From: Candidatus Acidiferrales bacterium
GTDB lineage: Bacteria; Desulfobacterota; Binatia; UBA9968
Length of the DNA stretch: 64,000 nt
Assembly (NCBI GenBank): GCA_035559995.1
Contig: DATMAM010000040.1
Location: forward strand, 197,452 to 261,451
Direction: 5' to 3'
The notes beneath the pieces were generated by a model, which made no database searches, had not been told where the DNA came from, and saw only the letters and a list, made by a program, of their open reading frames with translations. Positions 4,308 to 62,514 of this stretch are shown here, one piece after another (within the stretch, counting starts at the first letter, position 1; every line of letters begins with the position of its first letter). The position numbers were made by a program, and so were the translations under genes.

Positions 4308-4343
4308 GTTGCTTTCCTCCGTGGCTAGCTTTTTTCTCCGCCG

Positions 4344-6703: not shown

Positions 6704-6740
6704 CGATTTCTCCTTGAAATCGTCGCGCGCCCGCGAAGCT

Positions 6741-7136: not shown

Positions 7137-7240
7137 TGCTTTTTCTCCTTCCCTGGGGTGTGGGATCGTTTAGCCGGCATCCTACTACACTTTGCGCAAG
7201 ACATATACCGCCCGGGGCGTGTCAAGAATTTTCAAAGGGA

Positions 7241-25190: not shown

Positions 25191-25228
25191 CTTCCGCCGC
25201 GGCGGCCGTTAATCAGCGATAGCCACAT

Positions 25229-25302
25229 GGCGGTGTAGCTCAGTTGGTCAGAGCACGCGGCTCATATCCGCGGAGTCGACAGTTCGAGTCTGTCCACCGC
25301 CA
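25229..25302 (+). tRNA. tRNA-Met (anticodon CAT; elongator or Ile2-lysidine type)
   Basis: GGCGGTG...CACCGCC acceptor, anticodon loop CTCATAT, T-loop TTCGAGT; no encoded CCA; not initiator (1:72 paired, no GGG/CCC anticodon stem). Confidence 0.85.
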
Positions 25303-26634: not shown

Positions 26635-26995
26635 GCACCACCTCGATCTTGATCCCATAGCAGGCTTCGACGAGTTTCCGCTTCAGCATAAACACGGGCG
26701 TCCTCACGCCTTTGGTATCCTCCACCCTGACGCGCCCGCCGGCGTCGATGTAACCGAAGTCGGCGTAGTAGCGGCAGATTTTATGCCCGCCGATCTCGAT
26801 ATCATAGAAGGGCTTTAGCACCAGGTCCTTGATCGCCCCGGCCTTCGCGAGGACCTTGAGCTGCTTGTAACGGTCCGCCTCGAGCACGGAGTCGAACGTG
26901 TGACCGTCGAGCTGTATCTGTCGCGCGCCGAACTTGTGCGGCCGATCCGTGATCACCACGCGGCCGCCTTTGATTTTTCCGTAGAGTCTGGTCAT
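26612..26995 (-). CDS. phage protein, DUF1064-like
   Basis: 127 aa; G..VVITDRPHKFGARQIQLDGHTFDS..EADRY..L..AGAIKDL resembles DUF1064 phage family. Confidence 0.45.
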   Translation of the reverse strand: MTRLYGKIKGGRVVITDRPHKFGARQIQLDGHTFDSVLEADRYKQLKVLAKAGAIKDLVLKPFYDIEIGGHKICRYYADFGYIDAGGRVRVEDTKGVRTPVFMLKRKLVEACYGIKIEVVRAASHRR

Positions 26996-27477
26996 TCACT
27001 CAACCCCGGCAAGAGCGCCGGGACCTTCCCGGTGGCGTAGGCCTGCTCGATCGCTGGCATCGCGTGCTCTGCAAATGTCTTTCCGTCTGGCATCACGAAA
27101 TGAGCCATGAACTCGTGCTCGAAGGTCGTTATCCCAGACTCCACCGCCTCGAGCTTGGCCTTGATTACGAGAGCTAAAGCTCGCCAGCGCCGGCGTACCT
27201 CTTGCTCGTAAGCCTCTTTTGCAGCGGAGGGCGAGCGGGGAATCCATGACGTGAAGCTCCTTCCACGCTTGAAGTGCGTGAATCGTTTCTCGTCGGCCTT
27301 CGGCAATGGCAGAATGAATTTGCAGTAGCGGTTCTTAATTCGAAACCCGATCGCTGCCGCTTGGTCCTTCCATCCGGAGTAGAATTGATCCGCTCCGTAT
27401 TTCCGCAGAAGTTTTTCGATCTCGGCGCGTGAACGCTCCACCGGCACGCTGGTTTCTTTCGCATACACACCGCTCAT
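26992..27477 (-). CDS. hypothetical phage protein
   Basis: Start at ATG 27477 (MSGVYAKE) with GAGG RBS; coupled to downstream gene. Confidence 0.4.
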   Translation of the reverse strand: MSGVYAKETSVPVERSRAEIEKLLRKYGADQFYSGWKDQAAAIGFRIKNRYCKFILPLPKADEKRFTHFKRGRSFTSWIPRSPSAAKEAYEQEVRRRWRALALVIKAKLEAVESGITTFEHEFMAHFVMPDGKTFAEHAMPAIEQAYATGKVPALLPGLSE

Positions 27478-27670
27478 TTGAGACCTCGAAACATTTGCTT
27501 GATCCGGTCGATCATCGTTCCCATCTCGCGGATCGCCTTGGGCATGCACTCAGAGCACATTTCCTGGCCGTTCACCTTGCCGAAATCTCCAACGGGCTTT
27601 AGCTGGAGGCATCTGGTGCAGTGCTTGCTGATCTGGAGAATCCGGGGAACACTCGGCGGCTATCCCATCA

Positions 27671-29548: not shown

Positions 29549-30352
29549 TTACTCCAGCTTGGCTGTCGCTATCCTGAGCAGCGACCGCTTGACCTTATCG
29601 TCGGCTCCACGAGCGCGCTGCGCGGTCATGGAATTCCAATGCCGGCGAAGCCCCTCCATCGACAGCGTGTTGCCTGCCCAAAAGTCGTGGCCCATGGCCC
29701 AGTCGATCATCTCGGCGATAAGCTCGTAGCTGTGGCCATCGCGGCGGTGCATCAGCTCACAGACATGCGCCCATTTTGTTAGCTGCGCGGCCGTTGGCGG
29801 CGACCAGTCCGGCAGCCTCGCCTGAATCCGATCCACGAGCTTCTGCGTCAACTCGATCGCGCGCGGATCGGAGTCTTTTGTTGGTTGGTGACTGTTGGTT
29901 GGTGACTGTTGGTTGGTTGGTTGGTAGGCAGAATTTCGCCGCCGTTTGGCGGACAATTTCCGCCGTCGAGCGGACGCTCTATCTATGCGTTTTTTAATCA
30001 GATCTCCGCAGAAGTCTTGCCAGTCGTGTATCCACAGTCCCTGTTGATTGTCATTTTCCGCCAACCACGTTCCATCCACGTTCCTGCCACGAGCAGTTTT
30101 TTCGGTGTCCAGAAACCGCGCTTCAATGAGCGCGTTGATTAGCTGCTCCGGATCCGCGCCCCAACCGATGGCGCGCGCGATCTGGAGCTTTGAGAAGTTG
30201 GAGAGGTCTCCGTCTTGGGCGTAATCAATCGCCCACCACCACAGCATGTGAAGATAGCCGATCGCTTCGGGTCGGCTCATTTTGGTCAGTTCCATTAGCT
30301 TGTAGAGCTTTGGATGCTCTTTGAGCGATTGGTGCGATTCGATCCAGGCCAT
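29549..30352 (-). CDS. phage replisome-organizer / replication-initiator-like protein
   Basis: N-terminal WIESHQSLKEHPKLYKLMEL...AIGYLHMLWWWAIDYA...IARAIGW resembles phage replisome organizer N-terminal domain; contains iterons; start ATG 30352 or TTG 30367. Confidence 0.5.
   Translation of the reverse strand: MAWIESHQSLKEHPKLYKLMELTKMSRPEAIGYLHMLWWWAIDYAQDGDLSNFSKLQIARAIGWGADPEQLINALIEARFLDTEKTARGRNVDGTWLAENDNQQGLWIHDWQDFCGDLIKKRIDRASARRRKLSAKRRRNSAYQPTNQQSPTNSHQPTKDSDPRAIELTQKLVDRIQARLPDWSPPTAAQLTKWAHVCELMHRRDGHSYELIAEMIDWAMGHDFWAGNTLSMEGLRRHWNSMTAQRARGADDKVKRSLLRIATAKLE
29881..29924. repeat. iteron-like tandem direct repeats inside replication gene (TTGGTTGGTGACTG x2 + TTGGTTGGTTGGTTGG)
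   Basis: Perfect 14-bp duplication followed by (TTGG)4; encodes QPTNQQSPTNSHQPT linker. Confidence 0.6.
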
Positions 30353-30361
30353 AGCTTTCAG

Positions 30362-30395
30362 GTTCAAAAAGGGGGGGCCGCCAGTGGCCCCCCCT
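30362..30395 (-). terminator. rho-independent terminator-like hairpin (GGGGGGGCC-loop-GGCCCCCCC + TTTTTG) between ATPase and replisome-organizer genes
   Basis: Perfect 9-bp GC stem, 6-nt loop, T-run on minus strand. Confidence 0.55.
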
Positions 30396-43395: not shown

Positions 43396-44049
43396 TTACA
43401 GTAGGCTTTCGTCTTTGGCTGGAGCGTTGGCGGCGCCGGGCGTTTCCTGGGCGTGTTTTTTCTTGGCGCGTTTGCTGTCGACAGATCCGGCCTTGGCGCG
43501 CTCGACGTGTTGGTAGGTGAGGCGCAGTTCGTCCGCGCGGGCCTTGTAAATGTCCTTGAACTGATCGGTCTTGTTTTCGATGTGGGAGGAGACCTTGTTG
43601 AAATGGTCCCAACCCCGGCCTTGCTGTTTTCCTTTGAGCGTGTGCTTGTCCAGGGCGTAGTCCGGCACCTCGAGCTTCAGATTCTTCTGGATCCGCTCCT
43701 GGTGGACGACGGTCAAGAAATTATCGGCGAGGCGGCTCTTCTCGGACCGGCACATGGCGAGGATGGCATTCGATAAACAGAGCAGCTCGCTGGCTTGGCC
43801 CGGCCGCGCGACCATTTCGAAGTACATCTCCTTCAGGCTGTGAACTAGCACGATGAGCTGGGGATTGGCCGGGCCGATGTCTTCGCAGGCAATCACTTGG
43901 AGGCGGTGCCACAGGTATTGCGGATAGACTTCTTCGAGCTCCAGGGCCCAGAACATCGCTTCCTCTTCCATGCCCCGGCGGATCGATTTCTGCAGGGCTG
44001 ACATGGCTTCACTCAGATGATAGCCGTTTCGTTTGGTCCGTAGGTCCAT
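43396..44049 (-). CDS. hypothetical 217-aa helical protein, moron-like (own promoter)
   Basis: Good RBS AAGGAA; preceded by consensus promoter in AT-rich spacer; no recognisable domain. Confidence 0.5.
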   Translation of the reverse strand: MDLRTKRNGYHLSEAMSALQKSIRRGMEEEAMFWALELEEVYPQYLWHRLQVIACEDIGPANPQLIVLVHSLKEMYFEMVARPGQASELLCLSNAILAMCRSEKSRLADNFLTVVHQERIQKNLKLEVPDYALDKHTLKGKQQGRGWDHFNKVSSHIENKTDQFKDIYKARADELRLTYQHVERAKAGSVDSKRAKKKHAQETPGAANAPAKDESLL

Positions 44050-44087
44050 AAAAAGAAGTTCCTTTCCGGTGCGGAAATTTTAAGGTT

Positions 44088-44116
44088 ATCCTATAACTTT
44101 TTTATATAACGGTCAA
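44088..44116 (-). promoter_or_regulatory. consensus sigma70 promoter TTGACC-17-TAGGAT upstream of 217-aa gene
   Basis: Minus-strand TTGACCgttatataaaaaagttaTAGGAT in 95-bp AT-rich spacer. Confidence 0.55.
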
Positions 44117-44145
44117 GGAAAAAAGCTGGCAGGCGACGGGCTGAC

Positions 44146-45105
44146 TTAGGTGGCGTGGCCTTTGCCTTGCTGGCGTAGCAGGTCCTGGGCGTATGAGGCG
44201 ATCCCTGCGTTGGGATGGATCTTCGGCACCCAGCCGAGCAGGTACTTGGCGAGCGTGTGGTCGGCGAAGCAGTGGCGGATATCTCCGGGGCGCTTCTCGC
44301 CCGTATAGCGCGGGGTGATCTTCCCGTCGACCAGGTGCATCGAGAGCATGTTGGCGACAGCCTGCACGGGTAAGGGGATCCCGGTCCCGATGTTGATTGC
44401 GGCTTTGGGCCGGAAGAAGAGGGCGGCCTCGATGGCGGCCGCGACGTCTGAGACGTGGATGAAATCGCGGATCTGAAGACCGTCCTCGTAGATGACCGGC
44501 TGCTCGCCGGCCAGGAGCCTCGAGGCAAAGATCGCAACGACTCCCGTTTCGGCATTGGTGAGAGACTGTCCAGGTCCGTAGGTGTTGAACAGGCGAAGCG
44601 CCGTGACCGGGATGCCGTAGATCTCCCCGTTGATCCGGCAGAGCTGCTCGGTGTCGTACTTGGTCATGCCGTAAACCGAGGCCGGCCGGCACGCGTGCTC
44701 TTCCCTGACGCCGCGCGTTTCAAACCCTTCCCCGTAGACCGACATACTCGAAGCAACAATGATGTGCTGCACGCCGCCGGCGGCAACGATCGCCTGCATC
44801 AAAACGGCCGTTGCATAGCTGTTGGCCAGGACGAAGCGCGCGGGATCCTTTGCACTTTCCGAGACGCTCACACCGGCGGCCAGGTGGATGACGACGTCGC
44901 AGCCGCGGCAACACTCGAGTGTGGCTTCGTAGTTTTCAATCCGGTTAAGGAACACCAACCTAGCCCCGTCGACCATGGTATCCGGAGCTGGACCGTGCAC
45001 AACGGGCTCGAAGCAGTCCTGCACGACCACCTCGTGCTTTTTACCAAGCAGCCGCACAACGTGGCGCCCGATGAATCCGGCGCCTCCCGTAACGAGAATT
45101 CTCAT
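44146..45105 (-). CDS. NAD-dependent epimerase/dehydratase family protein (sugar-nucleotide epimerase-like)
   Basis: MRILVTGGAGFIG Rossmann start, SSMSVYG and catalytic YxxxK-type region; start ATG 45105 with GGGGGA RBS, overlaps upstream stop (ATGA). Confidence 0.8.
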   Translation of the reverse strand: MRILVTGGAGFIGRHVVRLLGKKHEVVVQDCFEPVVHGPAPDTMVDGARLVFLNRIENYEATLECCRGCDVVIHLAAGVSVSESAKDPARFVLANSYATAVLMQAIVAAGGVQHIIVASSMSVYGEGFETRGVREEHACRPASVYGMTKYDTEQLCRINGEIYGIPVTALRLFNTYGPGQSLTNAETGVVAIFASRLLAGEQPVIYEDGLQIRDFIHVSDVAAAIEAALFFRPKAAINIGTGIPLPVQAVANMLSMHLVDGKITPRYTGEKRPGDIRHCFADHTLAKYLLGWVPKIHPNAGIASYAQDLLRQQGKGHAT

Positions 45106-45851
45106 AGATCCCCCAATTCCAGTTTTTGCCGGCGGGCGACGTCCTTCACAACCATGCGCGTCACGCCTCCGGAGACCTGCTCCTGGAGGTAAGCTCCCCA
45201 CTTCCGCTTCAGGTAGTGGCGGTCCGCGCTCCAGCTCCCAGCCGAGATCGCGTGGCGGTTCCCGCCGGCGTTGGTCATGATCTGGTGCTCGAACATGAAG
45301 CGCGTATCCTGCCAGACGATACGGTCCTTGAGAAGTGCCTGCAGGGTGAGGTCGGCATCGGTGTTGTGGCTTAGCGCGGTGTCGGGGAGGAGCCGCCTGC
45401 CGACGAATCCCAAGCAGGGACCGTTTGCCTTGAGGAACCCGAAAGGGTCATAAGGAAAGAAATTGAGAATGTTCGGCGTGATCGCAAAGGAGAAGAGGCT
45501 CACGCCGATCCCCTCCGCGATCGAGGCAGCGTTGAAGATAATCCGGTAAACGGCGACCGGATCCGTGATCACACGCGCCTTGCGCCCGACCAGGCAGATC
45601 ACCCTCGAGACATCATCGTCGAAGATGACAACGCACTTCTCTTTCCGGTGCTCGAGGATCCAGCGCCGGACGCGCGAGACGCCGGCGACATCGTCCGGGT
45701 GGGTGGTAAGCGCGGCGCGAAACTCGCGGTAATCTTCCGCTTCGCTTTCGGCAACGCAGACCTCGGCCGATGGGACCAGGCGAAACGCGCGCCGGCACGA
45801 CTCCACGCGCTTTCGGCTGGGAATGACGATCCGGAGATCCTTCTCCGTCAC
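45102..45851 (-). CDS. putative GT-A-fold glycosyltransferase, paralog 1
   Basis: RIVIPSRKRVESC...VIFDDDV (DxD-like)...; 40-50% identical to adjacent paralog; GTG start overlapping paralog-2 stop (GTGA). Confidence 0.4.
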   Translation of the reverse strand: MTEKDLRIVIPSRKRVESCRRAFRLVPSAEVCVAESEAEDYREFRAALTTHPDDVAGVSRVRRWILEHRKEKCVVIFDDDVSRVICLVGRKARVITDPVAVYRIIFNAASIAEGIGVSLFSFAITPNILNFFPYDPFGFLKANGPCLGFVGRRLLPDTALSHNTDADLTLQALLKDRIVWQDTRFMFEHQIMTNAGGNRHAISAGSWSADRHYLKRKWGAYLQEQVSGGVTRMVVKDVARRQKLELGDL

Positions 45852-46591
45852 AACTCCAGATCCTGCTGGCGGGAAACACGTACTTTGAGGGACACCACCC
45901 GTTTCTGGTACCCGATCCCGATGTACTGTCCCCACTTCTGCTTTAGGTGCTTGAACTCGCGCTGGGTGTTCTCGACGCTTCTCGAGACCGTGTTGCCGCC
46001 GGCTTTGGTGATGAAGTTATGCTCGGCGGCGAAGCGAGAGTCCTGCCACACGATCCGCTCCTTGAGGAGCGCCTGCAAAGAGAGATCCACATCATCGAAT
46101 TGGGTCACCTCGGGATCATAGCGGATTTTTCGATCGAGAATCCCAAGAAGCGCCCCCTCGAGTCGGGTGAGTTGAAACGGCTTGTGCGGGCGGAACTTCC
46201 GCACATCGTCCTGGAAGGGATTGAAGGAGAAGCAACTGATGCCGAGCTCCTCGCAGATGTTCGCTGAGTTGAGGAGGATCCGCTCGATCGCGTGCGGATC
46301 CACGATCCGGCGGGGTCGGAAGCCGACCACGCAGTACAGGCTCCTCACGTCATCGTTGCACTGCACAATCACGCGCTCGTTGAAGTGATCGAGAATCCAC
46401 TGGCGAAGCCGCCCAAGACCGAAAATATCGTTGGGATGGGGAACGATCTTCGCCCCGATGTCCTTGTAATCCCCGAGCTCTTCTTCCGCGACGCACACCA
46501 CGGGATTTTTGAACAGCTTGACCGTCTGCGCGCAGCTCTCCACGCGCCGGCGGCTCGGTATCACGACGAGCATGTCTTTGGCCTCGATCAC
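45848..46591 (-). CDS. putative GT-A-fold glycosyltransferase, paralog 2
   Basis: MLVVIPSRRRVESC...VIVQCNDDV...; start overlaps ParB-like gene stop. Confidence 0.4.
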   Translation of the reverse strand: MIEAKDMLVVIPSRRRVESCAQTVKLFKNPVVCVAEEELGDYKDIGAKIVPHPNDIFGLGRLRQWILDHFNERVIVQCNDDVRSLYCVVGFRPRRIVDPHAIERILLNSANICEELGISCFSFNPFQDDVRKFRPHKPFQLTRLEGALLGILDRKIRYDPEVTQFDDVDLSLQALLKERIVWQDSRFAAEHNFITKAGGNTVSRSVENTQREFKHLKQKWGQYIGIGYQKRVVSLKVRVSRQQDLEL

Positions 46592-47325
46592 GCAGCGGCA
46601 CCTTTCTTGGCCGGCGTTTTTGCGGCCTGAGCGCGGGCCTCGAGCTCCTTTACCCGCTGCATGTACTTGGACCCGTTGATGACCCGCCCGACACCGATGG
46701 TTTTCTTTCCCACGTATCCCGGGACCTTCACTTTCTGCAGACCGAAATGATCCATCGCGGAAAGAAAGTCCCGGCTGTCCTTAAAAAAGACAACGATGTA
46801 ATCGTAATGCTCGTATGGGAGGAGGTCCATTTCTGGCGGGCCGGGGAGCTCGTCCTCGGGCTCCTCGAATCCGGATAGATGCGAACCATTTTCATCCATT
46901 CCGCCGCGCATCTGAAGATCAGCCTCTTGGCGAAGCGGGGCCATATTCAAGCTGTCGTAGAGGTCGGGCATCTGGCTTTCGAGTTCCTTGAGCAGGTTGC
47001 CCAGGAGCTGCTCGTCCCAGTCGCCCCCGACATTGGGGTTATTCAGCGTGATATTGAGCGCCTTCTCCTTCTCGATCGGAAGGTCCACAACCGAACATGG
47101 CACGGTTTTTTCGCCGCGCGCCTTCAGGATCTTGAAACGCTGGTGGCCGGAAACAAGGTTGCCGGTCCGCTTGTTCCACACGAGCGGCTCCACCAGGTCA
47201 AACTCGGCCAGGGATTGCTCGATGGTTTCGTACTCGTGCTCCCCGGGCTGGAGCTCGCGCCTGGGGTTGTACGGGGCCGGGTTGATCTTGCTCACCGGGA
47301 TATCCTGAAGGTTGATCTTTGCCAT
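46588..47325 (-). CDS. ParB/Srx-fold (ParB-like nuclease domain) protein
   Basis: INPAPYNPRREL...LVSGHQRFKI ParB N-terminal domain signature; acidic C-terminal region. Confidence 0.65.
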   Translation of the reverse strand: MAKINLQDIPVSKINPAPYNPRRELQPGEHEYETIEQSLAEFDLVEPLVWNKRTGNLVSGHQRFKILKARGEKTVPCSVVDLPIEKEKALNITLNNPNVGGDWDEQLLGNLLKELESQMPDLYDSLNMAPLRQEADLQMRGGMDENGSHLSGFEEPEDELPGPPEMDLLPYEHYDYIVVFFKDSRDFLSAMDHFGLQKVKVPGYVGKKTIGVGRVINGSKYMQRVKELEARAQAAKTPAKKGAAA

Positions 47326-48779: not shown

Positions 48780-49256
48780 TTAGTTGTCGGCCGCAGCGTA
48801 CTTCAAATTCTGAGCGATCCGGCGCGCCCAGCCGCGCGCATTGTGACCCCAGTTAGAAAGCCGCGTCATGAAATCCAGCCGCTCGGCGAGAAAACGGAGC
48901 AGCGCATCGTTCGGGTCCATCCGATCGTAAGCCACTTGGCTAACCGGACCCCAGTAGCCGTCATCAGCAACTCCGACCGCTCGCTGGAGCATCCGGATCG
49001 CGTTTCCGATCCCGTGGTGAACAGCGGCGTCAAACAGTTGGTAGACAAGCGCATCGTCGAGCTTTGAGGCAACGGGAGCCCAAAAATCGCGCTGGTAGAT
49101 GACCTTTGCCCCGTCGCGCGTGAGATTCTTAATGTCGACGTCAGGATAGGAGCGCTTCGAAATCCCCCAGTTCGTCTCCCCGCCGGGGTCCTCGGGGTCG
49201 TTTGTGTAGCCCCCCTCGTGCCCGAGCGTGCGGTCAAAAGCCGTATCGAAGTCCAT
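48780..49256 (-). CDS. endolysin, glycoside hydrolase family 108 lysozyme-like
   Basis: HEGGYTNDPEDPGGETNWGI GH108 catalytic motif. Confidence 0.8.
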   Translation of the reverse strand: MDFDTAFDRTLGHEGGYTNDPEDPGGETNWGISKRSYPDVDIKNLTRDGAKVIYQRDFWAPVASKLDDALVYQLFDAAVHHGIGNAIRMLQRAVGVADDGYWGPVSQVAYDRMDPNDALLRFLAERLDFMTRLSNWGHNARGWARRIAQNLKYAAADN

Positions 49257-49627
49257 CAGCGTTTTCTCCGATCGAAATCAGGGCGGATCGCCGAAATCGT
49301 CTTGGCGGTGCGATCATCCGAATAATTTTCCTCGAACCGCGCAAGCCCGCACTCACCGGCGCGCAGATAAGCCTCGATCGAGAGAGCCAAAACCTGCCAC
49401 CTGTACTCGAGCATGGCCTGCCAGCCGGAGTAGTGGCGGAACTCCTCGCGTTTGAGGATCGGCATCAAGCATTTGACCAGGCGGTGATCGACCCGGAATC
49501 CGACAGTAATCTTCTCCCCGTTCGACCGCATCACGACGTCATCGCAGCCGTAATCTTTTAAGATTTGCCGGATCTGCTCCTTCGACTTCTTTATCGTCCA
49601 AGGGTTCTCAAATTCTCGCCTGCCCAT
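49256..49627 (-). CDS. hypothetical phage protein
   Basis: 123 aa. Confidence 0.35.
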   Translation of the reverse strand: MGRREFENPWTIKKSKEQIRQILKDYGCDDVVMRSNGEKITVGFRVDHRLVKCLMPILKREEFRHYSGWQAMLEYRWQVLALSIEAYLRAGECGLARFEENYSDDRTAKTISAIRPDFDRRKR

Positions 49628-53537: not shown

Positions 53538-55856
53538 TTACACGATTTCCTCTACCTCGACTTCGATCACGTCAGTCGGATCCAGGTGAAAGTACATGAT
53601 GGAAAGCGCGAGCTCGCGCGTATCCAGATGCGTGTGGTACTCGTGCATGAGCACCTCGGCGATCTTCGCAGCGTGATCCTTCGTTGTTGCGATCGGAAGC
53701 TCGGCCGTGATCTCGCCCTTCGACGCGGTGAGCTCGCGGTTGAAACTCTCGGTATCCTGCTCGTAGTCCTTCTCGAGGTTCCAATAGCTCACGTGCGTTT
53801 TTTTCGGCGCCTCGGTCGCCTGGCCCTTGGTCTTCGCCAGAGGCTCGGGCATCTCAGCGCCGAGCTCGTGGGCAGCGAGATACTTTTGCGGGATCTTGAG
53901 CATTGGCGCCTTGCCCCGTTTGGGGAAGCGGATTTTCCCGTCGCCGCAGTAAGCATCGTAGAAGTACCCTGTGAGGAGCGGCTGGCTCCACGCGGCGGCG
54001 CTAGACTGGCGGCCCACAGCAAAGCCGGGAACGAGATCGTTCAGCTCGCTCACGTCGATGTCCTTGTTGCCGAGCTGGACATCACGATCGGCGATCAGGC
54101 CGGCATGGCGGCATAGATCCGCCTGAATCTTCCACAGGGGAACGCTATCGGTCGTTGCGCGGTCGAGATAGATGTGGTCGAACCCGAAGCCGGTGAGCCC
54201 TTTCTGCCAATCGGCGACCAATGAGTGACTGTCGGGCATGTAAACGGACGCCAGATACCCGAAACCAGGACCTTGCGCGTTGGGAATCGAAGTCCAGAGA
54301 TACGTTCGCTCGACCTGCAACGTGACGATGTTCACTTCGGCGAAATAGCTCTGCCCGAAGGCGGCGCCCACGGGGATCCACTGCTTCCCATTGACGGTAT
54401 CGAGACCCCGAGGCCAGATTGCGCCGTTGATCGTTAACTGCCCCACGATCGATTGGCTGTCTACCGACCATTTATGAATCGTATCGCCTGCAATGATCAG
54501 CACGCTGTTGCTGGCCTCGTCATAGAAAGCGTGAGGAACGATGAACGAAGGAGTAAACAGGCCGCTCAGATCATAGGCCGTCACCTGGCCAGAGGGTGTC
54601 ATTTTCACGAGCTGCGCGAGCGTTGTCATCGCCCAGGCGTTTCCATCCGAGTCGATCGATTCGACATCTTTCACCTCTCCATAGCCAAGCCCAACCGTGT
54701 TGATCTCAGCTAAAAGAGCCAGCGTGGCAGAATAAACGCGCACGATGTCATCACCGCAGTGAAGCGTAGCGGTATGGGCCGACCAGATATTTCCCTGACC
54801 GCTCACGCGGTCGACCTTTAGTTGCCGGCAACCTACGCCGCCAGTGGAACCAGAAAAACTTCCCCCGATCGGATCGGTAGTATTCTCGGCGATAATCTGG
54901 AGTGTTTGTGGATCGAGCAGGGCGACAAAAAGACCGTGCTGCGCCACGACGAGGCCATCGGTTGTGATATCCCATGCGCGGAGATGGTCGGGGCCGTTAT
55001 ACGTCTGCAGGATGAATTTGTTCTCGAGCAGATCGAATTTTCCGACCCGGTTGATCCCGCCATCTTGGATTAGCAACGCATAGGCTGTGTACCGTTCGCG
55101 ATCGACCAGGAGCACGTGCGCGTAACCGCTCAGCCCGCCGACACCGTTCTCGACGCGCTCCAGGAAATGGGTGCCAGTTGTCACGCGCGCCATGAGTCCG
55201 TGGAGCTCTGGGATCCGGTTGCCGAAATCCTCGAGCGGTAAATCTACGAGCACGGTCGAAGAGACACCGCGGCCAGCCGGCACCTCGCCAACGCCGAACT
55301 CCGCTTCCCAGATCGAATCCGGGAGCTGCGTCTCTGAGCCGGTCCGGTGGCGCACCTCCATTTTCTTGTACTTCTTGATTTGCTTAGCGCCCGGCCGGCG
55401 GTCGTAGATCAACTTCACGTCGCCCCAGATCGCGAGCAGGTCTGCTTCCGCCTCGCACCATGCGACCTCTACGGTCGCGAAGTAGGAATAAGAGACGATC
55501 GTTTGGCTCGTCCCGCCGCCGCCTTTGCCGAACAGACCGCCACCGCCAACCGACTGTTTTTTCTTGACTTCTTTGATGCCTTTCTTCGGCATCGCAATGA
55601 GGTTCCCAGCCTGGCGCCATTTGCCCCACCCGATCGGAATCATGGCGTTGTAGGTGCTCGCCATCACTTGGAGATCATTCAGCCGCGGCCCCCTAATCGT
55701 CGGACCATCGGGGCGAAACAGCATGTTTCCGAGCAGGCTCCCGAACTGCCAGCCGATGGACATCGCCGTAAAGATCCCAGTCGTGCTCGCGCCGAAAAAC
55801 GCCGCAGCGCCGCCAGCAGCGGCGGCACCAGCGGCGGCAAGCCCGATCGCAGCCAC
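53538..55856 (-). CDS. phage tail host-specificity protein (lambda gpJ / GTA g15-like)
   Basis: 772 aa, Ala/Gly-rich N-terminus, position after NlpC/P60 gene as in lambda/GTA tail tips. Confidence 0.55.
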   Translation of the reverse strand: MAAIGLAAAGAAAAGGAAAFFGASTTGIFTAMSIGWQFGSLLGNMLFRPDGPTIRGPRLNDLQVMASTYNAMIPIGWGKWRQAGNLIAMPKKGIKEVKKKQSVGGGGLFGKGGGGTSQTIVSYSYFATVEVAWCEAEADLLAIWGDVKLIYDRRPGAKQIKKYKKMEVRHRTGSETQLPDSIWEAEFGVGEVPAGRGVSSTVLVDLPLEDFGNRIPELHGLMARVTTGTHFLERVENGVGGLSGYAHVLLVDRERYTAYALLIQDGGINRVGKFDLLENKFILQTYNGPDHLRAWDITTDGLVVAQHGLFVALLDPQTLQIIAENTTDPIGGSFSGSTGGVGCRQLKVDRVSGQGNIWSAHTATLHCGDDIVRVYSATLALLAEINTVGLGYGEVKDVESIDSDGNAWAMTTLAQLVKMTPSGQVTAYDLSGLFTPSFIVPHAFYDEASNSVLIIAGDTIHKWSVDSQSIVGQLTINGAIWPRGLDTVNGKQWIPVGAAFGQSYFAEVNIVTLQVERTYLWTSIPNAQGPGFGYLASVYMPDSHSLVADWQKGLTGFGFDHIYLDRATTDSVPLWKIQADLCRHAGLIADRDVQLGNKDIDVSELNDLVPGFAVGRQSSAAAWSQPLLTGYFYDAYCGDGKIRFPKRGKAPMLKIPQKYLAAHELGAEMPEPLAKTKGQATEAPKKTHVSYWNLEKDYEQDTESFNRELTASKGEITAELPIATTKDHAAKIAEVLMHEYHTHLDTRELALSIMYFHLDPTDVIEVEVEEIV

Positions 55857-56290
55857 TACCAGACCCCCTTGAAGCGATAGATGCGGTCGATGCGGTCGAT
55901 CCAGTATTGATCGAACACGTTCTCGCAGACTTTACCGACGCGGCGGTAGCAGTGAATGATCGAGAGCGGATTTCCTCCGTCGGCGACGATCCCCAGGTGC
56001 ATTTGCTCCTCGACGAGGCCCGTATCCATCCAGAACACCGGGACGTCGGCGAGCCTAAGATCGTCCTTACTCTTCACGCGGATGCACGCTTCATCGAGCA
56101 TTTTGTAAAGGAGCCGCCAGTTTGGCGTGTAGCCGTAGGTCACATAGTCGCGGTCGGTCAGACGGAAATGGTGCGCGACGTTCACGGGAAGACCGAGGCA
56201 ATCCACGCCGTGCCGCGATCGCCCTTGATGAACCCAAGGGACCTCGAGCCAGGTCCGCGCCTCCGCTATGATTTCTTCAGGTCTGGGCAT
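55856..56290 (-). CDS. NlpC/P60-family tail-associated peptidase (lambda gpK-like)
   Basis: Catalytic Cys in HGVDCLGL and downstream His (HLGIV); listed ORF N-terminal extension is Arg-rich out-of-context read. Confidence 0.55.
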   Translation of the reverse strand: MPRPEEIIAEARTWLEVPWVHQGRSRHGVDCLGLPVNVAHHFRLTDRDYVTYGYTPNWRLLYKMLDEACIRVKSKDDLRLADVPVFWMDTGLVEEQMHLGIVADGGNPLSIIHCYRRVGKVCENVFDQYWIDRIDRIYRFKGVW

Positions 56291-56426
56291 TGGGCGGTGC
56301 CAACGATCACTTGTGGATGAATCGGCCGTTTGAACAGGCTTTCGCAGTCGTGACAATAAAAGAGGGCTTCTCCTTTCTCCTCTCCGAGCGGCTCGAGTTC
56401 TCTCTGCGTCGTCGCGCAAACGAGCT

Positions 56427-56807
56427 TCATCGACACGCCTCGCCCCTGATGACGCCATCCTGGCTCGAAAACGTCCACACGCCACTTCCTTCAGCGCAGC
56501 CAGCAAGAGCCTGGGCCGTGATCGTGAATGACGCCTGCGATCCTTCAACGTGCAGATCCACGTTGTCGCTCCTTCGGTAGCCGCCGAGCGCCAGCTCTTC
56601 GACGGATTGCGCGTAGCGGCTGCGCTGAGAAAAGACATCCTCTTGAGCCGTCGCAGCATACTTGAGATCGGCCCGGACGACGGCGTCGATCGCGCGCTTT
56701 CGATAAGAGACGTATTGAGGGATCGCGATGGCGGTGATGATCCCCATGATTGCGATTACGACCAAGAGCTCGACTAGCGTAAATCCTCTATGCACATCGC
56801 ACCTCAC
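56427..56807 (-). CDS. type IV pilin-like protein (prepilin with class III signal peptide) inside tail module
   Basis: ...HRG/FTLVELLVVIAIMGIITAIAIPQY prepilin peptidase site with Glu+5; C-terminal Cys pair (AGCAEG...GEAC). Confidence 0.65.
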   Translation of the reverse strand: MRCDVHRGFTLVELLVVIAIMGIITAIAIPQYVSYRKRAIDAVVRADLKYAATAQEDVFSQRSRYAQSVEELALGGYRRSDNVDLHVEGSQASFTITAQALAGCAEGSGVWTFSSQDGVIRGEACR

Positions 56808-58363
56808 GCTTTGGCATCCGGCGTTTGCAGCCGGCGGAAGACACCAGGAACAAACCGCTCGCCGCGGAAATTGTAGATGTTCCGAAATGTATCCCTGCAG
56901 GTTTCCGGCGTGCGGTCACACCCGACGATGATTTCGAACTGATCCCCAGGCTCGATGTTGTAGGGCGTGTCATCCATGAGCTCGATCTCGCGCACCGTGC
57001 GCGTGGCGAGCGTGCCGCCTGCCGTCGCGCTCGGAATCCCTTCTACCACTCTCACCTGCGTGCGCTGGGTGGTTGGATTGTAGTTAAGCGAGCTCACGGT
57101 ATAGGTCCCGTTATTGTTGGCGGATCCCTCCACGACGACCGTCGACCCGATAAGGAGAAGCTGGTTTCCGCCGACTTCGAACTGCTGATTGATCTGGCTC
57201 ACCGCGACGATCGGCCACTTGGCGAAGCTGTCGCTCTTGATCTCGCTCTCCATCCAAATGTTATCGCTCTCTGATCCCCAGAGGATCCGACCGAAGCGAT
57301 ACCAGCCGTCCGGCTCCGTCGAGAAAAGGGGATTGTTCACCCTGAATTTGAACTTGGGCTCGAGCACGGAATAGACAGCGCCGCGCTTGATGTACGCTTC
57401 GATCGCCTTCCAGGTGACGCCCCCATCGACCGTCGTGGCGCCAATCGTCGTATTCCACACGGGCTCCGTTGCACCGGATGTTCCCGCGACGGCGCATTCG
57501 AAGTAGCGGCCGTTGGCAGCGGTGGGTTTCACAATCGAGCCGACGCCAGCATCCCGGAGCGCCCGCGCGGTGTAGGGCGTGTTGGCTTGCCAGACGGGCG
57601 GATCCAGGCGGACCTTGCAGAAGTTCACGTCGTCAGTATCCTCCTCGTCCTGGCCGTCGTACCCGAGAATGGGGGCGCGGCAATGCTTGGAGTAGACGTG
57701 CCCGACGGTCTGCTGCATGTAGTGCTCAAAGCTCTTGAACTCGGCCTCGTAGGTCAGCCGGCCGGTCGCGACCTGGCCGATGTTGCCGCGGCCGCCGGGC
57801 ATCCAGATTTTCCCCATCGAGAGGTCCATGTAGTTCACGAAAAAAAATTCCATCTCGCAGTTCGAGTACAGGCCGCGCTCGATGTCGAAGTCGCTGATGA
57901 ACTGGGAATCCAGGATGCCGATGAAATTGAAATTGCTCACGGCAAAATTGGACGCATTCCTGAGCTCGGTCGGCACATACGCGCGCGTGGGGTTGTACTT
58001 CACGTTCTCGAAGGTGAGGCCCTTGAAATACGTGGTGAACCCGATCACCCGCCGCGCCACACCGCCGCGCTCGTAGGTCGCAAAGCCAGTTGAATTGACG
58101 GGAATCGAAAACGTCGTCGGCGTCAGCACGGTGATGGGATACTCGGCGCCGTTCACCTGGGTCATGCCGCGCACGCGCACGATCTTGACAACGTCGCCAG
58201 TCGAAAGCAGGTGCTCGAACTTGGTGGTCACGACAGCGGGATTTGCCTTTGAGATGTTTGCAATCTGAGGCTGATGCTTCTGCTCGATGATCTTCAAGCA
58301 CTTGGTCACCGTAACCCAGGGCTCCTTGAGATGGTTGAGGAGAGCCGCCGAAGCACCCTTCAT
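56804..58363 (-). CDS. phage tail hub protein (BR0599/DUF2163-like, GTA g13-like)
   Basis: C-terminal FEIIVGCDRTPETCRDTFRNIYNFRGE motif typical of BR0599 family. Confidence 0.55.
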   Translation of the reverse strand: MKGASAALLNHLKEPWVTVTKCLKIIEQKHQPQIANISKANPAVVTTKFEHLLSTGDVVKIVRVRGMTQVNGAEYPITVLTPTTFSIPVNSTGFATYERGGVARRVIGFTTYFKGLTFENVKYNPTRAYVPTELRNASNFAVSNFNFIGILDSQFISDFDIERGLYSNCEMEFFFVNYMDLSMGKIWMPGGRGNIGQVATGRLTYEAEFKSFEHYMQQTVGHVYSKHCRAPILGYDGQDEEDTDDVNFCKVRLDPPVWQANTPYTARALRDAGVGSIVKPTAANGRYFECAVAGTSGATEPVWNTTIGATTVDGGVTWKAIEAYIKRGAVYSVLEPKFKFRVNNPLFSTEPDGWYRFGRILWGSESDNIWMESEIKSDSFAKWPIVAVSQINQQFEVGGNQLLLIGSTVVVEGSANNNGTYTVSSLNYNPTTQRTQVRVVEGIPSATAGGTLATRTVREIELMDDTPYNIEPGDQFEIIVGCDRTPETCRDTFRNIYNFRGERFVPGVFRRLQTPDAKA

Positions 58364-58471: not shown

Positions 58472-59353
58472 TTAAAGAATTTCTTCAACTCTGACCTCCT
58501 TGAGCGTGAGCTCCTGCTCGCCGGCCTCCCACGCGATCCACGAGGTCGGGAGCGCCTTCACCGTGCAGCGGACCGGGACGTCGAACTCAAAGCCGCCCTT
58601 CACGTTTCCTTCGCCGGCCTGCGGGTTTGTGTTGATGACGCCTCCCGAGGTGTACGCGCTGAAGGCAAGCGTCGTGATATTCACGGTGAACACTGTCGAT
58701 GACTGGACGCTCACCACGTTGCCTCTGAGCCCGTTGATCTGAGTCATTCCGGAAACGCCGCTAAAGTGGACGCTGTCGCCGACAGCAAGCGTGTGCCCGG
58801 TCGACGTCGTCACCTGCGCCTGGGCGGCCTGAGTGATGTTGGTGATCGAGCGCTGGACGTTGGCAGCGAGTGTGTAGAGGCCGGTGTTGTTGTTGATCGT
58901 GAATCGGCTCGAGGGAATCTCTGAATTCTGCACGCCGAGCTTCGCTGTGCCAGCGACGATTTTGTAGATGGTTCGCTCGGTGGTGATACCGGCGCCAATG
59001 TCGTAAGTCTTCTTCGCCTGGTAGGTGAGCGTTACGCCGTCGGCGATCCCGAGCACCTGGTCGAACGCGGTCACGTCAGCGCTCCGGTTTCCGCTCCGGT
59101 AATCGTTCCAGTCCTTGAACCGAAACCAGTGGAACATCCCTTTGATGACATGGAAGTAATCGCGCACGAGCTCGAGATCAGCTTCCTCGCGGATCCCATA
59201 ACCGACGTCGTACTCGTGCAGCGGCTCCGGCTGGTCGAGAATCGCCTGTGAGTGGCCCCCATAGAGCTCGGTCACCCCCACCTCGTACATTGCATAACCG
59301 ATGGATCGAAAATTGATGTTCGAGGGGAATCTTGGTGACTCGATCATCGCCAT
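58472..59353 (-). CDS. distal tail protein (DUF2460/GTA g12-like)
   Basis: 293 aa directly downstream of tape measure. Confidence 0.5.
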   Translation of the reverse strand: MAMIESPRFPSNINFRSIGYAMYEVGVTELYGGHSQAILDQPEPLHEYDVGYGIREEADLELVRDYFHVIKGMFHWFRFKDWNDYRSGNRSADVTAFDQVLGIADGVTLTYQAKKTYDIGAGITTERTIYKIVAGTAKLGVQNSEIPSSRFTINNNTGLYTLAANVQRSITNITQAAQAQVTTSTGHTLAVGDSVHFSGVSGMTQINGLRGNVVSVQSSTVFTVNITTLAFSAYTSGGVINTNPQAGEGNVKGGFEFDVPVRCTVKALPTSWIAWEAGEQELTLKEVRVEEIL

Positions 59354-59355
59354 CG

Positions 59356-62300
59356 TCAGTTCATCCCCAGACGGCTCGCCATCGTGCGGCCGGCCTTATA
59401 AAGATCGCCCGTGATCTGGCTTCGGTTTCGCCGGATGCTTTGCGCGTCGTTAGCGTGAATGTGGAGATGCTCGATTTTGAAGTCACGCACGCCGGAGTTG
59501 TTCGGCTGGATTCCCGTGGCGCCGCTCGACACTGGGATAATCTGCTCACCCTTCTCCAGAATCGCAGGCACCTCGTTCGCCATGAGGCCAACGCCGGCGC
59601 TTCCCGCGTGATAACGCTCCGCATGCTCGAAGACAGCGGGATCGATCAGGCGCTTGACCGGGAGCTCGCCGGCCTTCCCGCCCATGTGGCCGACGCCGAG
59701 CAGCGCGCCGAACTCCATGTCGAGGAAATCCATGGCGCTCGTTCCCGCTCCAGCGACATCGGTGAAAGCGTCGACCGGACCGCCGCCAAACAGACCGCCT
59801 ACCATGCCGAAAAGACCTCCGATTCCACCGGCGCCACCACCGCCACCGCCGAAGCTCGTGTTTGCAAGAGACAATAGCCAGCTCGAGAAAGAAGACGTGG
59901 ACTTCGACGCATCCTGGAGTCCGAGATCGAACTCCTTCACCGTACCCTGCAGCGCCTCCAGGCCAACGGTGCTCTGCGAGAGCATGGCACCGAATTCCTG
60001 ATCGAGAGCATCGAAGGTATCGAGAGTCTTCATGAGCACTTCGTCGGGCGTACCCCCGCGCGGGGCGAAGATGTCGCCCGGACCTGTGATCAGAGCGCCG
60101 AGCCCGCGCACGCTGTCGCTCAGGATTTCGGCGAGCTCAGCGCCGCAGCATTCAGTCTTTGGCATGGGAGCGAACATGCCCGAAAGGGCGCCTGCCCGCG
60201 TTGCACCGCCGGTCAGCCCTGCAACCTGAGCGCCCATCTCGCGATCGAGCTGCTCCCACACCTCGAAGGTCTTCTCCATCTCCGGCGTCGGTGAACCGCC
60301 TTTCGGCCCGAGCACATCGGTTTTTTGGCCAACGCCGAACAGCGCCGAGAAAAATCCGCCGATGCCGGTGCCTTCCGCGAGCGCCGAATTGATCGCCATC
60401 TCGATCTGGGCGTCGAGCCACTTCGAAACGATCCGGTCGATGACATCGAAAATCTTCTTTCCGAAGTCCTCCCAGCTCCGGATCTCGCCGCGGCGGAAAT
60501 CGTCCCAGATTGACTTAATTCCAGATGCCGCGTCCCGGAAGACATCTTCGATCCGGGCGGCTTCCTCGAGCTCGCGGAGCTCGGCAGCGAGATCCTCGAT
60601 CTTCTGCTGGCCTTCCGGAAAGCGATCGAACCCTTGGGCGATCAGATCCTGGATGGCCGTGCGGACAGAATCGATCTTCGCCCTGATGGAATCGAAACTC
60701 CCGCCGAACACCTTGGCCTGAGCGTCGATCTGTCGGAGTTCCTCCTCGAGCCGCACGAAAGGTTCGTTGAGTTTTTTTGAAGCCACGGCATCTACCATCT
60801 CGCGGCGCTTTGCCGCTTCGGCCTCGATGGCGGCGATCACCTGGTCGCGCGCTTCCCCCGTAGCAGCAGCCCGCGCCTGTTCCGCCTCGACCGCAGCAGC
60901 TCGCCAGTCTTCAATGACCTTCAGGCGCTCCTCGCGCTCGCGCCGGATCTCCTCAAGGATCCTGCCCGACTGCGACATGAGCTCGAGCTCAAGCTGCCTC
61001 GTTAAATCCGTGGCCGCCTTGCCCGTGTCCGTGCGAATTTTCTGCAGATCGAGCTGGCTTGCGAGGCTGACTGCCTCGGCCTGGGCCCGCTTGAGCTCCT
61101 CGGTGAAGCGCATCACGTGCGCCGTGAGCTTCCCGAGGTCCTTCTCGTTCAGCGCGTCGACATCGACGCCGAGCGATCGGAGGAGAGCGTCCGCCTGCTT
61201 CACTACGGGAACAAATTCGGACGGTATGGGGAGCTTCTTTGCGGCAATCTCGTTCTTCGCAGCCAAAATAGCCATGGCCTGAGAGGCCTCGAGAGCAGCC
61301 TCCTCGCCACGCTTGAGCTCGATTACCTGGAGCTGGAGATCACCGATATGGTCCTGTGCGGACTTCCGCAGGCCCTCGATGATCTGCCGCGCCTCCTCGA
61401 GCTTCTTTGGATCGGCAAGAGGAGTCCACGCCTTCTTTGCCGTCTCGCCGGTTTTGGCCACCTCCTGGCCGGCTTTGGTGAGCTCGTCCATTCGGTCCTT
61501 GGCTTCCGCCAGGTCGAACGCGATGGCTTGAATGTCCTTGCGGTTCCCGAGAGGCGTAGCGACAGGAATGTTTTGCAGATCGAGAAACCTTTTGCGGATC
61601 TCGGGCCCGGTCATCTTCTCAAGCTCAGCGCGCGCGATGCCGGTCCGCGACGCGAGCTGAGCCATCATGAGCCCTGCCTGACCGGAAATTTTTCCGAGCT
61701 CCTCGACTCGAGAGAGAGGAATCAGGCCGAGCAGTTTTCCGATGTCAGCAGCCCACTCACCGACCTTCGCCTTCGGCAGGAGATTGATGATTTCGGTCAG
61801 CCCCCGCGCGATCATCGCGAGGCCTTCGACGGCGACCTTGATGTACGGACCCCATGCGGCGGCAGCGGCAATTAACGTGTTCTTCGTCTCGGTCAAAGAA
61901 TCACCCATCTCGTCGAGCGATCGGGCGGCGTCGGCCCTGATCACGCGGCCGGCGGCTTCCGCTTCCATGCGGAGTTTCGCCATTCCCTTTTCGGCGACCT
62001 GTTCCAGCGTGGCGTTGAGCTCAGTCCCGGATCCGCGGAAGAGCGCCATCTGGATCTGCGTCTTGGCGGCCGCGTCATCGACATCGCCGAGCCTTTGCGC
62101 GATCAGCTCAAAGACCTGGTCGGTCTTGAGTCCCTTTAGCTGCTCAGCGTTCAGACCGATTTTGGCAAGCGCCGACGCGGCGCGCTGGCCCTCTTCGTCG
62201 GCGACGTTGGCGAGGTTTCGCTGGAGCTGAAGCAGGCCGGTGGAGAGCGTCTCGAACGACGCCTCGTTCGTCTCGGCGACGTTCTTTAGGACGGAGAGGT

Positions 62301-62514
62301 TCTCGACGGAGATTTGCGTTTTCCGGGAGACAGAAAGGAGTTGCTCGCCGGTGTCGGCGACCTCCTTCGCAAACCGCACGAGGGAGATCCCGGCGAACAC
62401 GCCGGCGGCGGCCTTGGCGACACCGCTCAGGACGGACTGAGTTTTGGTGGCCGCGCGCTCAACGCCCGTTGTGTCGCCGAGAAAGCGAAAGAGCACGTCA
62501 CCGACGTTGGCCAC
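59356..62514 (-). CDS. tail tape measure protein
   Basis: 1052 aa, long coiled-coil, Gly-rich segments (GGGGGAGGIGGLFGMVGGLFGG). Confidence 0.8.
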   Translation of the reverse strand: MANVGDVLFRFLGDTTGVERAATKTQSVLSGVAKAAAGVFAGISLVRFAKEVADTGEQLLSVSRKTQISVENLSVLKNVAETNEASFETLSTGLLQLQRNLANVADEEGQRAASALAKIGLNAEQLKGLKTDQVFELIAQRLGDVDDAAAKTQIQMALFRGSGTELNATLEQVAEKGMAKLRMEAEAAGRVIRADAARSLDEMGDSLTETKNTLIAAAAAWGPYIKVAVEGLAMIARGLTEIINLLPKAKVGEWAADIGKLLGLIPLSRVEELGKISGQAGLMMAQLASRTGIARAELEKMTGPEIRKRFLDLQNIPVATPLGNRKDIQAIAFDLAEAKDRMDELTKAGQEVAKTGETAKKAWTPLADPKKLEEARQIIEGLRKSAQDHIGDLQLQVIELKRGEEAALEASQAMAILAAKNEIAAKKLPIPSEFVPVVKQADALLRSLGVDVDALNEKDLGKLTAHVMRFTEELKRAQAEAVSLASQLDLQKIRTDTGKAATDLTRQLELELMSQSGRILEEIRREREERLKVIEDWRAAAVEAEQARAAATGEARDQVIAAIEAEAAKRREMVDAVASKKLNEPFVRLEEELRQIDAQAKVFGGSFDSIRAKIDSVRTAIQDLIAQGFDRFPEGQQKIEDLAAELRELEEAARIEDVFRDAASGIKSIWDDFRRGEIRSWEDFGKKIFDVIDRIVSKWLDAQIEMAINSALAEGTGIGGFFSALFGVGQKTDVLGPKGGSPTPEMEKTFEVWEQLDREMGAQVAGLTGGATRAGALSGMFAPMPKTECCGAELAEILSDSVRGLGALITGPGDIFAPRGGTPDEVLMKTLDTFDALDQEFGAMLSQSTVGLEALQGTVKEFDLGLQDASKSTSSFSSWLLSLANTSFGGGGGGAGGIGGLFGMVGGLFGGGPVDAFTDVAGAGTSAMDFLDMEFGALLGVGHMGGKAGELPVKRLIDPAVFEHAERYHAGSAGVGLMANEVPAILEKGEQIIPVSSGATGIQPNNSGVRDFKIEHLHIHANDAQSIRRNRSQITGDLYKAGRTMASRLGMN

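Follow-up and report, generated by a model that had tools for sequence, protein, structure and literature searches.

The window analysed here, a stretch of 64,000 nucleotides (contig DATMAM010000040.1), comes from an uncultured Candidatus Acidoferrales bacterium (Candidatus Acidiferrales at NCBI; Acidobacteriota, Terriglobia) and carries a prophage that extends from an integrase gene at a tRNA-Met (25.2–26.4 kb) past the right edge of the window. Within the tail module of this prophage lies a gene for a type IV pilin homologue, which is the subject of this report. An earlier note on the same DNA had singled out the gene as embedded in, and translationally coupled to, the tail genes, and had offered three functions for it: a tail-tip appendage, a mimic that engages the host pilus machinery for adsorption or DNA entry, or a superinfection-exclusion factor. 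The genes of the locus, some of them resembling tail-tip genes of the Rhodobacter capsulatus gene transfer agent (RcGTA), and the parts of the encoded pilin are listed below; ORF stands for open reading frame.

56804–58363, minus strand: tail hub gene (RcGTA g13/phiJL001 gp84-like; DUF2163 and BR0599; PF09931, 4.6e-24; PF09356, 2.9e-17; PF16190), upstream of the pilin gene
56802–56805, minus strand: GAGG, a Shine–Dalgarno-like motif read from the sequence; it overlaps the hub stop codon and agrees with the NCBI start of the pilin gene
56427–56807, minus strand: phage pilin homologue of type IVa major type (“P-PilA”); longest ORF, 126 amino acids
56784–56807, minus strand: class III (prepilin) leader MRCDVHRG, or MHRG from GTG 56795 (from sequence and family alignment)
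56718–56783, minus strand: mature hydrophobic N-terminal segment FTLVELLVVIAIMGIITAIAIP (alpha1-N; polymerisation and membrane anchor helix; from sequence and alignment)
56433–56498, minus strand: C-terminal segment Cys104...Cys125 (D-region, putative disulfide loop; from alignment and model)
56266–56430, minus strand: orphan ORF of 54 codons with the motif YCHDC, between the pilin and NlpC/P60 genes
55856–56290, minus strand: NlpC/P60-family tail peptidase, RcGTA g14-like (TIGR02219, 4e-8; PHROG 329 minor tail protein, 3e-12)

Position of the pilin gene and comparison with related tail modules

The embedding of the pilin gene in the tail-tip module and its tight coupling to the neighbours were borne out by the ORF list and by the start and stop codons. 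In the longest ORF, the start codon GTG (56807–56805) overlaps the stop codon TGA of the hub gene (56806–56804) as GTGA, which is the arrangement that the earlier note had described. The NCBI/PGAP model (HWP59523.1, 122 amino acids) begins instead at the second start in frame, GTG 56795, with GAGG 6 nt upstream; it has the leader MHRG and leaves an 8-nt gap after the hub gene, so that the overlap holds for the longest ORF but not for the NCBI start. Judged from the codons, the coupling between pilin and hub is tight with either start. The gene also lies between the hub and NlpC/P60 genes, as claimed, but it does not directly abut the latter: the 54-codon ORF intervenes, overlapping the pilin stop with its ATG (as ATGA) and the NlpC/P60 start with its 3′ end. 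This small ORF, which gene calling also returned on an identical Logan contig, had no Pfam, PHROG, NCBIfam or PADLOC match and no real homologue among 1.84 billion representatives. Direct or inverted repeats flanking the pilin gene, which would mark a mobile cassette, were only short and at chance level; the window held no further pilin motifs, and a PADLOC scan of the pilin gave no match. GC content at third codon positions (GC3) is 0.68 in the pilin gene and 0.62 in the 54-codon ORF, compared with 0.73–0.80 in the flanking tail genes and 0.69–0.72 in the host pilA genes, which is weak evidence, the genes being so short.

A scan for sigma-70-like promoters and terminators flanking the pilin gene found none, a custom promoter scan of the 600 nt upstream found none at a relaxed threshold, and a pattern search found no sigma-54-like site within the tail module; the promoter consensus behind these negatives is based on E. 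coli, and the promoters of Acidobacteriota are poorly known. As there is no intergenic room and neither a promoter nor a terminator was found, the simplest reading is that the pilin gene belongs to the late tail-tip transcript.

By sequence, the tail tip that surrounds the gene is of the RcGTA g12–g15 type, read on the minus strand. In addition to the hub and the peptidase, it comprises the following genes.

59356–62514, minus strand: putative tape measure, 1052 amino acids, at the start of the tail-tip operon (from its size and its position after tail chaperones)
58472–59353, minus strand: DUF2460 distal tail protein, RcGTA g12-like (PF09343, 2e-39), upstream of the hub
53538–55856, minus strand: Phage-tail_3/gpJ-like host-specificity protein, RcGTA g15-like (PF13550, 8e-21; PHROG 4271, 4e-76)

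HWP59524.1 (Candidatus Acidoferrales) matches the hub protein at 100% identity, and an identical 14-kb tail contig was assembled independently from sequencing run SRR7882662. On the identical contig, the tape measure candidate, which has no family match itself, follows Phage_TAC_1 and Phage_tail_T genes. The NlpC/P60 assignment of the gene at 55856–56290 draws on TIGR02219, which scores below its cut-off, on PHROG 329 and on syntenic relatives that match PF00877 (NLPC_P60).

The nearest hub proteins in the sequence collections are about 40–50% identical, and the collections hold no close relative of the window phage; a scan of viral contigs with the single hub protein gave no match and was repeated with a hub alignment. 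The set used for comparison consists of 54 other loci with a hub homologue (28–52% identity) and downstream sequence, some of them on duplicate contigs. No pilin motif occurs anywhere in these loci (0/54). In the relatives, the NlpC/P60 gene follows the hub gene directly or after 130–590 bp, and this slot contains small unrelated Cys-rich zinc-ribbon-like ORFs (74–120 amino acids), or a conserved ORF of 77–83 amino acids with the motif DPGFxNF...YEIFLNG...CITADEE, or is empty. The junction between hub and NlpC/P60 genes is a variable slot (compared in loci L002, L166, L176, L192, L197, L246 and L252).

No similarity to virion proteins emerged either. Searching the window pilin by tblastn against 50,697 cultured-phage records gave no match, nor did a structure search of BFVD at E ≤ 0.001, and its PHROG matches are family 3433 (“pilin; moron/host takeover”) and families of unknown function, none of them in the tail category. 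A class III signal followed by a 22-residue hydrophobic helix leads a protein into the inner membrane, away from tail assembly in the cytoplasm, and such targeting would be hard to reconcile with a place in the tail. We regard the window pilin as an accessory insertion in the tail module and disfavour a role in the virion.

Pilin class, cellular relatives and divergence of the phage copy

The N-terminus of the window pilin, MRCDVHRG/FTLVELLVVIAIMGIITAIAIPQY, has the Gly-1, Phe+1 and Glu+5 of a class III prepilin, and this part of the earlier note was confirmed by Pfam N_methyl (E = 3.5e-9; 36.3 bits, gathering score 21.2) and by NCBIfam TIGR02532 IV_pilin_GFxxxE (35.5 bits, cut-off 16.3). Cleavage by PilD is predicted after Gly8 (codon 56786–56784). 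Gly8, Phe9 and Glu13 are invariant in a family alignment of 30 sequences, comprising the window pilin and 29 cellular members, as are Cys104 (56498–56496) and Cys125 (56435–56433; 30/30). These two are the C-terminal disulfide pair that the earlier note had named: the cysteines stand, and the bond between them is a putative one.

An AlphaFold2 model from the family alignment (pLDDT 89.1) shows a helix at residues 11–62, a short helix and four strands, among them 110–114 and 119–123 in the D-region; in this model the protein has the pilin lollipop fold, with a 52-residue alpha-1 helix and a four-stranded antiparallel sheet. The top PDB match found by Foldseek is Thermus thermophilus PilA4 (6xxd_A; TM 0.72, root mean square deviation 2.4 Å, 123 columns, 31% identity). 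PDB sequence profile matches that reach past the shared N-terminal helix are mainly to major pilins, namely Geobacter PilA-N, Myxococcus PilA, Thermus PilA4 and PAK pilin, and the best equivalog-type NCBIfam match is PilA_Myxo, below its cut-off. Other members of the superfamily were rejected: the pseudopilins of the type II secretion system (GspG, 39.3 bits against a cut-off of 88.85; GspH, 29.1 against 80), the minor pilin ComP_DUS (24.8 bits against a gathering score of 27.3) and ComGC, whose model scores far under its cut-off. Because its relatives occupy canonical pilus loci and because of the sequence and structure matches, the window pilin is, as far as sequence and model can tell, a complete homologue of the type IVa major pilin (PilA-like).

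A search of 5.8 billion proteins returned 303 homologues, the best non-self ones being about 50% identical over the full length (E down to 5e-32). The cellular relatives, found in metagenome-assembled genomes (MAGs) of Acidobacteriota, Binatia and Deltaproteobacteria, are 126–131 amino acids long, align colinearly with the window pilin and share its signal, cysteines and fold. All four homologues that were examined on contigs lie in loci of the order pilB-pilC-(pilS/pilR fusion)-pilA(x1–2)-yfhO, followed by PMT and GT2 glycosyltransferases. In all of these cellular loci (L165, L284, L286 and that of P0002), the pilin genes have one or two YfhO-family genes on their 3′ side, often together with PMT/GT2 genes; the gene that precedes the pilin genes is a fusion of PilS, with six transmembrane segments, and PilR, a sigma-54 activator.

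One of these loci, L165, very probably belongs to the same Candidatus Acidiferrales MAG as the prophage. It comes from sequencing run SRR7882662, the run of the phage contig, and carries pilC first, then pilS/R and then two tandem PilA genes (HWP56504.1 and HWP56505.1), the accessions of which lie about 3,000 away from those of the phage genes HWP59523/HWP59524. Its PilC is 78% identical to that of a related locus, and its tetranucleotide composition correlates with that of the chromosomal part of the window at r = 0.94, a value that alone is not discriminating. The window pilin is 50% identical to each of the two tandem proteins, which are 62% identical to each other.

The window gene is thus a PilA homologue without being the gene of the host's pilA locus, because it stands in a phage tail operon and no sigma-54-like site occurs within the tail module. 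Whereas the cellular pilA genes are accompanied by PilS/R and pilus genes, the phage gene is surrounded by tail genes and has neither PilS/R nor a sigma-54 signal, and its leader has four or eight residues compared with about 11 in the cellular relatives.

Over the family alignment, the window pilin keeps every column that is invariant in all 30 sequences, as it must, being one of them; these columns include the cleavage site, Glu+5, the Pro22-equivalent and both cysteines. Of 52 positions at which at least 90% of the 29 cellular members agree, it deviates at 12, and those members themselves deviate at 0–4; ten of the substitutions fall in the helix and are mostly conservative (I>V, I>M, L>I, F>Y). 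Identities and surface composition compare as follows.

Mean identity to cellular members: phage copy 0.46; cellular members 0.64
Identity in the alpha-1 region: phage copy 0.63; cellular members 0.87
Identity in the globular region: phage copy 0.35; cellular members 0.44
Ser/Thr fraction of the exposed domain: phage copy 0.17; cellular members 0.316 +/- 0.046 (minimum 0.23)
Charged fraction of the exposed domain: phage copy 0.21; cellular members 0.064 +/- 0.034 (maximum 0.17)

HWP56505.1, a likely host PilA, has a Ser/Thr fraction of 0.35 and a charged fraction of 0.03. By these sequence measures the phage copy is a long-branch outlier, intact but shifted. The cellular pilins are probably O-glycosylated, since YfhO and PMT-type glycosyltransferase genes follow pilA and the exposed domain is 32% Ser/Thr; the surface of the phage copy would be chemically different and less open to glycosylation.

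Proposed role and rival explanations

With a probability of about one half, we read the window gene as a phage-captured, diverged copy of the host major pilin, a P-PilA mimic that would enter the host pilus, alter its surface and block phages that depend on it. In this model the pilin would insert in the inner membrane via its class III signal, where the host PilD would cut after Gly-1 and methylate Phe+1. It would then join the assembly machine of the host type IVa pilus (the pilB-pilC... locus) and co-polymerise with, or partly replace, the two host PilA proteins. Its Ser/Thr-poor and highly charged exposed domain would change the pilus surface and possibly its glycosylation, and phages with the pilus as receptor would no longer adsorb, be they competitors or the phage's own progeny on infected or lysing cells. 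The net effect would be replacement of a receptor subunit, a form of superinfection exclusion, as demonstrated for the phage pilin P-FimU. The processing, pilus incorporation, expression timing and anti-phage benefit of the phage pilin are what we infer.

Of the three functions that had been offered, superinfection exclusion alone found support, in the precedent of P-FimU and P-PilA (Sztanko et al, 2026; Cell Rep; PMC12952977), in the full-length homologue of 50% identity and in the remodelled exposed domain; the function itself is put forward by analogy. According to that study, the tail cluster of F10-like Pseudomonas aeruginosa siphophages includes a gene for a FimU-like minor pilin, P-FimU, flanked by those for tube and chaperone; the prophage expresses this pilin, which becomes part of the pilus tip and keeps phages that bind there from adsorbing (PMC12952977). 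The same source describes, in Xylella fastidiosa prophages of three morphotypes, a P-PilA with about 50% identity to the PilA of the host and a superimposable predicted fold; four groups of virulent phages carry PilA-like genes as well (PMC12952977). Beyond this work, the literature search found nothing specific.

As far as that account goes, the likeness to P-FimU is close: both are pilin-family genes of temperate siphophages in the tail cluster, both encode an accessory, non-virion homologue of a host pilus subunit with the same fold, and the proposed logic, a receptor subunit replaced and pilus-dependent phages blocked, is the same. However, the subunit that P-FimU is described as mimicking, at 28% identity, is a minor pilin of the tip, whereas the window pilin is of the major type and 50% identical to the host copies. 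P-FimU is placed between tube and chaperone genes with a conserved promoter of its own, whereas the window pilin lies after the hub gene, with a small ORF separating it from the NlpC/P60 gene, and the scans found no promoter for it. The host of P-FimU belongs to Pseudomonadota and experiments have been done there; the window pilin, from an acidobacterial host, is known from its sequence alone. The Xylella P-PilA resembles the window pilin as a major-pilin homologue with the same degree of divergence (about 50%) from the host PilA; it is reported from bioinformatics only and from Gammaproteobacteria, and the window copy adds a Ser/Thr-poor, charged surface and excess change in alpha-1. By analogy, the window pilin would belong to the kind of phage-encoded pilus subunits already described as P-FimU and P-PilA, here in a new phylum.

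Prophages can also shield the cell from pilus-dependent phages by other means. Tip of D3112 and Aqs1 of DMS3 are small cytoplasmic prophage proteins that inhibit the PilB ATPase; like the role proposed here, they are accessory functions that render the cell refractory to pilus-dependent phages, but they are not pilin homologues and have no class III signal. The classical morons in late operons, such as lom and bor of lambda, carry their own promoter and terminator. The window pilin resembles lom and bor as a non-structural, host-surface-related gene among late or tail genes that is not conserved in related phages, but differs in that no promoter or terminator was detected and in that its start and stop overlap, or nearly overlap, both neighbours.

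Several points weigh against receptor-subunit replacement by the window pilin. That the pilus is a receptor for the window phage or for a competitor in this host is an assumption of the model. The gene has no promoter or terminator of its own that we could find and stands among late tail-tip genes at a spacing of at most 8 nt; expression in the lysogen is unsupported, though it is essential in the P-FimU case, and co-expression with low-copy tail-tip proteins may yield too little protein to re-coat a filament of thousands of major-pilin subunits. The divergence is greatest in the normally conserved polymerisation helix, which could mean poor co-assembly. Finally, the identity of the host copies rests on the shared run, accession proximity and composition, and not on a shared contig.

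Some of these points would fit a dominant-negative “poison” pilin, which we consider unlikely but the best of the alternatives. At low dose, a subunit with an altered alpha-1 would stall or cap pilus assembly or retraction, and cells without pili, or without retracting pili, would resist pilus-dependent phages; the selective logic is that of receptor-subunit replacement, the mechanism is different. The concentration of divergence in the polymerisation helix (0.63 vs 0.87; 10 near-invariant positions substituted) speaks for it, as does the promoterless place in a low-expression tail-tip operon, which is easier to reconcile with a sub-stoichiometric inhibitor than with replacement in bulk, and inhibition of assembly is among the options that Sztanko et al propose for truncated phage PilA proteins (PMC12952977). 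However, an inhibitor would not need the globular domain, the disulfide cysteines and all the family-invariant residues that the window pilin has kept, and the Pseudomonas phage versions are reported to retain only about 60 residues (PMC12952977). The helix substitutions, moreover, are mostly conservative and leave Glu+5 intact.

It is rather improbable that the gene serves lysogenic conversion to the advantage of the host, phage exclusion not being the selected trait. A third, antigenically or chemically distinct pilin would then alter adhesion, aggregation, motility or DNA uptake or guard against threats other than phages. The one or two tandem pilA paralogues in the host family suggest a use for diversity among pilins, the phage copy differs strongly in its surface chemistry, and the PHROG class of phage pilins is “moron, auxiliary metabolic gene and host takeover”. 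On the other hand, no promoter for lysogenic expression was detected; whereas cellular pilA lies downstream of the sigma-54 activator PilS/R, the phage copy has no sigma-54-like promoter nearby. Experimental precedent for a tail-module pilin exists for anti-phage defence and none for this role.

A functionless passenger, that is, a host pilA taken up by illegitimate recombination and drifting towards loss, is very unlikely. The long branch and the excess of substitutions at conserved sites would be expected of it, the gene is unique to the window phage among the relatives sampled, and its GC3 lies slightly under that of the flanking tail genes (0.68 vs 0.73–0.80). Yet the ORF is intact at about 50% divergence with all family-invariant residues kept, the model gives a confident pilin fold, and the boundaries are seamlessly fitted to the neighbours with a Shine–Dalgarno motif, because of which a recent accidental insert is not expected.

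Similarly unlikely is a promoterless pilin, made from the late tail-tip transcript, that would act in lytic growth and not in lysogeny, as an adaptor, anchored in the membrane or associated with the virion, between the RcGTA-type tail tip and the type IV pilus or secretin machinery in adsorption or DNA passage. In a milder form of this scenario, the late pilin would mask the receptor and spare the progeny from the pili of lysing cells.

Least probable of all is a component of the virion or an entry device, with the pilin at the tail tip or otherwise with the particle and engaging the pilus or secretin of the recipient. The gene is embedded in and tightly coupled to a tail-tip operon without an independent promoter, the tail tip is of the RcGTA type, RcGTA DNA enters through competence-type import proteins, and there is a weak, sub-threshold similarity to ComP_DUS. 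The tail-tip appendage of the earlier note is nevertheless disfavoured, because the gene is missing from about 50 related tail modules, because searches of tail PHROGs, cultured phages and BFVD structures found nothing similar and because its class III signal and 22-residue hydrophobic helix direct the protein into the membrane, and the mimic for adsorption or DNA entry found no support; the protein also still aligns colinearly with cellular filament subunits, at 50% identity, and P-FimU, although encoded in a tail cluster, is reported to act in the pilus (PMC12952977).

If the reading as a PilA mimic is right, receptor-subunit replacement reaches the major pilin, the distant and uncultured phylum Acidobacteriota and phages with an RcGTA-like tail tip, which would support the suggestion of Sztanko et al that the strategy is widespread. 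A surface that is Ser/Thr-rich and probably glycosylated in the cellular pilins has become charged in the phage copy, and together with the lack of a recognisable promoter this raises the question whether such mimics work from late transcripts or at low dose. Pilin annotations in phage tail modules should not be taken as virion components.

Further phage pilins and other genes of the prophage

In IMG/VR, 159 contigs encode relatives of the window pilin, as found with a narrow pattern. Directly beside these pilin-like genes stand, among others, further pilins, a terminase, portal-type genes and tape measures; no pilus-machinery genes occur there. On one contig of an uncultured siphophage (L043; UViG_3300010278_000047), the pilin-like gene at 3937–4359 (...REGG/FTLAELLVVVAIIGVLVAISIP...) lies between a tail-chaperone-like gene and a tape measure gene (PhageMin_Tail, 2e-53), a position that echoes that of P-FimU. 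A second contig (L005; UViG_3300023223_000769; 65 kb, 41% GC) has a cluster of three pilin genes at 6197–8375, encoding a PilX_N-like protein (359 amino acids), a minor-pilin-like protein (120 amino acids) and a PilA-like protein 45% identical to the window pilin; the cluster stands beside RtcB, SNase and SbcCD-like genes in an early or replication region, not in a tail module.

The GC content of the window is about 0.63 in its chromosomal part and lower, about 0.59, in the prophage, and an Rfam search of the whole window returned two tRNAs and nothing more. Outside the tail module, the following prophage genes were assigned.

25248–26444, minus strand: integrase; overlaps the 3′ part of tRNA-Met (25228–25304, plus strand), marking the attachment site
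29549–30367: replication initiator
43396–44049, minus strand: MgsA_C-like ATPase
44146–45201, minus strand: NAD-dependent sugar epimerase/dehydratase
45102–45935 and 45848–46591, minus strand: two TET-associated glycosyltransferases (PF20691)
46588–47325, minus strand: ParB_N/type II methyltransferase-like protein
48780–49256: GH108 endolysin

The minus-strand genes from 43396 to 47325 form a cassette that resembles a phage DNA-hypermodification module; no TET/JBP dioxygenase was identified among the scanned ORFs. In the tail tip, an E1_FCCH-like domain (PF16190) is inserted in the hub and in the DUF2460 protein (E = 3e-16 and 3e-12), and a stretch of the hub matches a “head decoration” PHROG; these inserted domains may be surface-binding modules. 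PHROG 17260, a family of unknown function, is matched by two minus-strand ORFs at opposite ends of the prophage, one at 26992–27549 (E = 9e-60) and one at 49256–49627 (E = 8e-8), the latter adjoining the endolysin gene.

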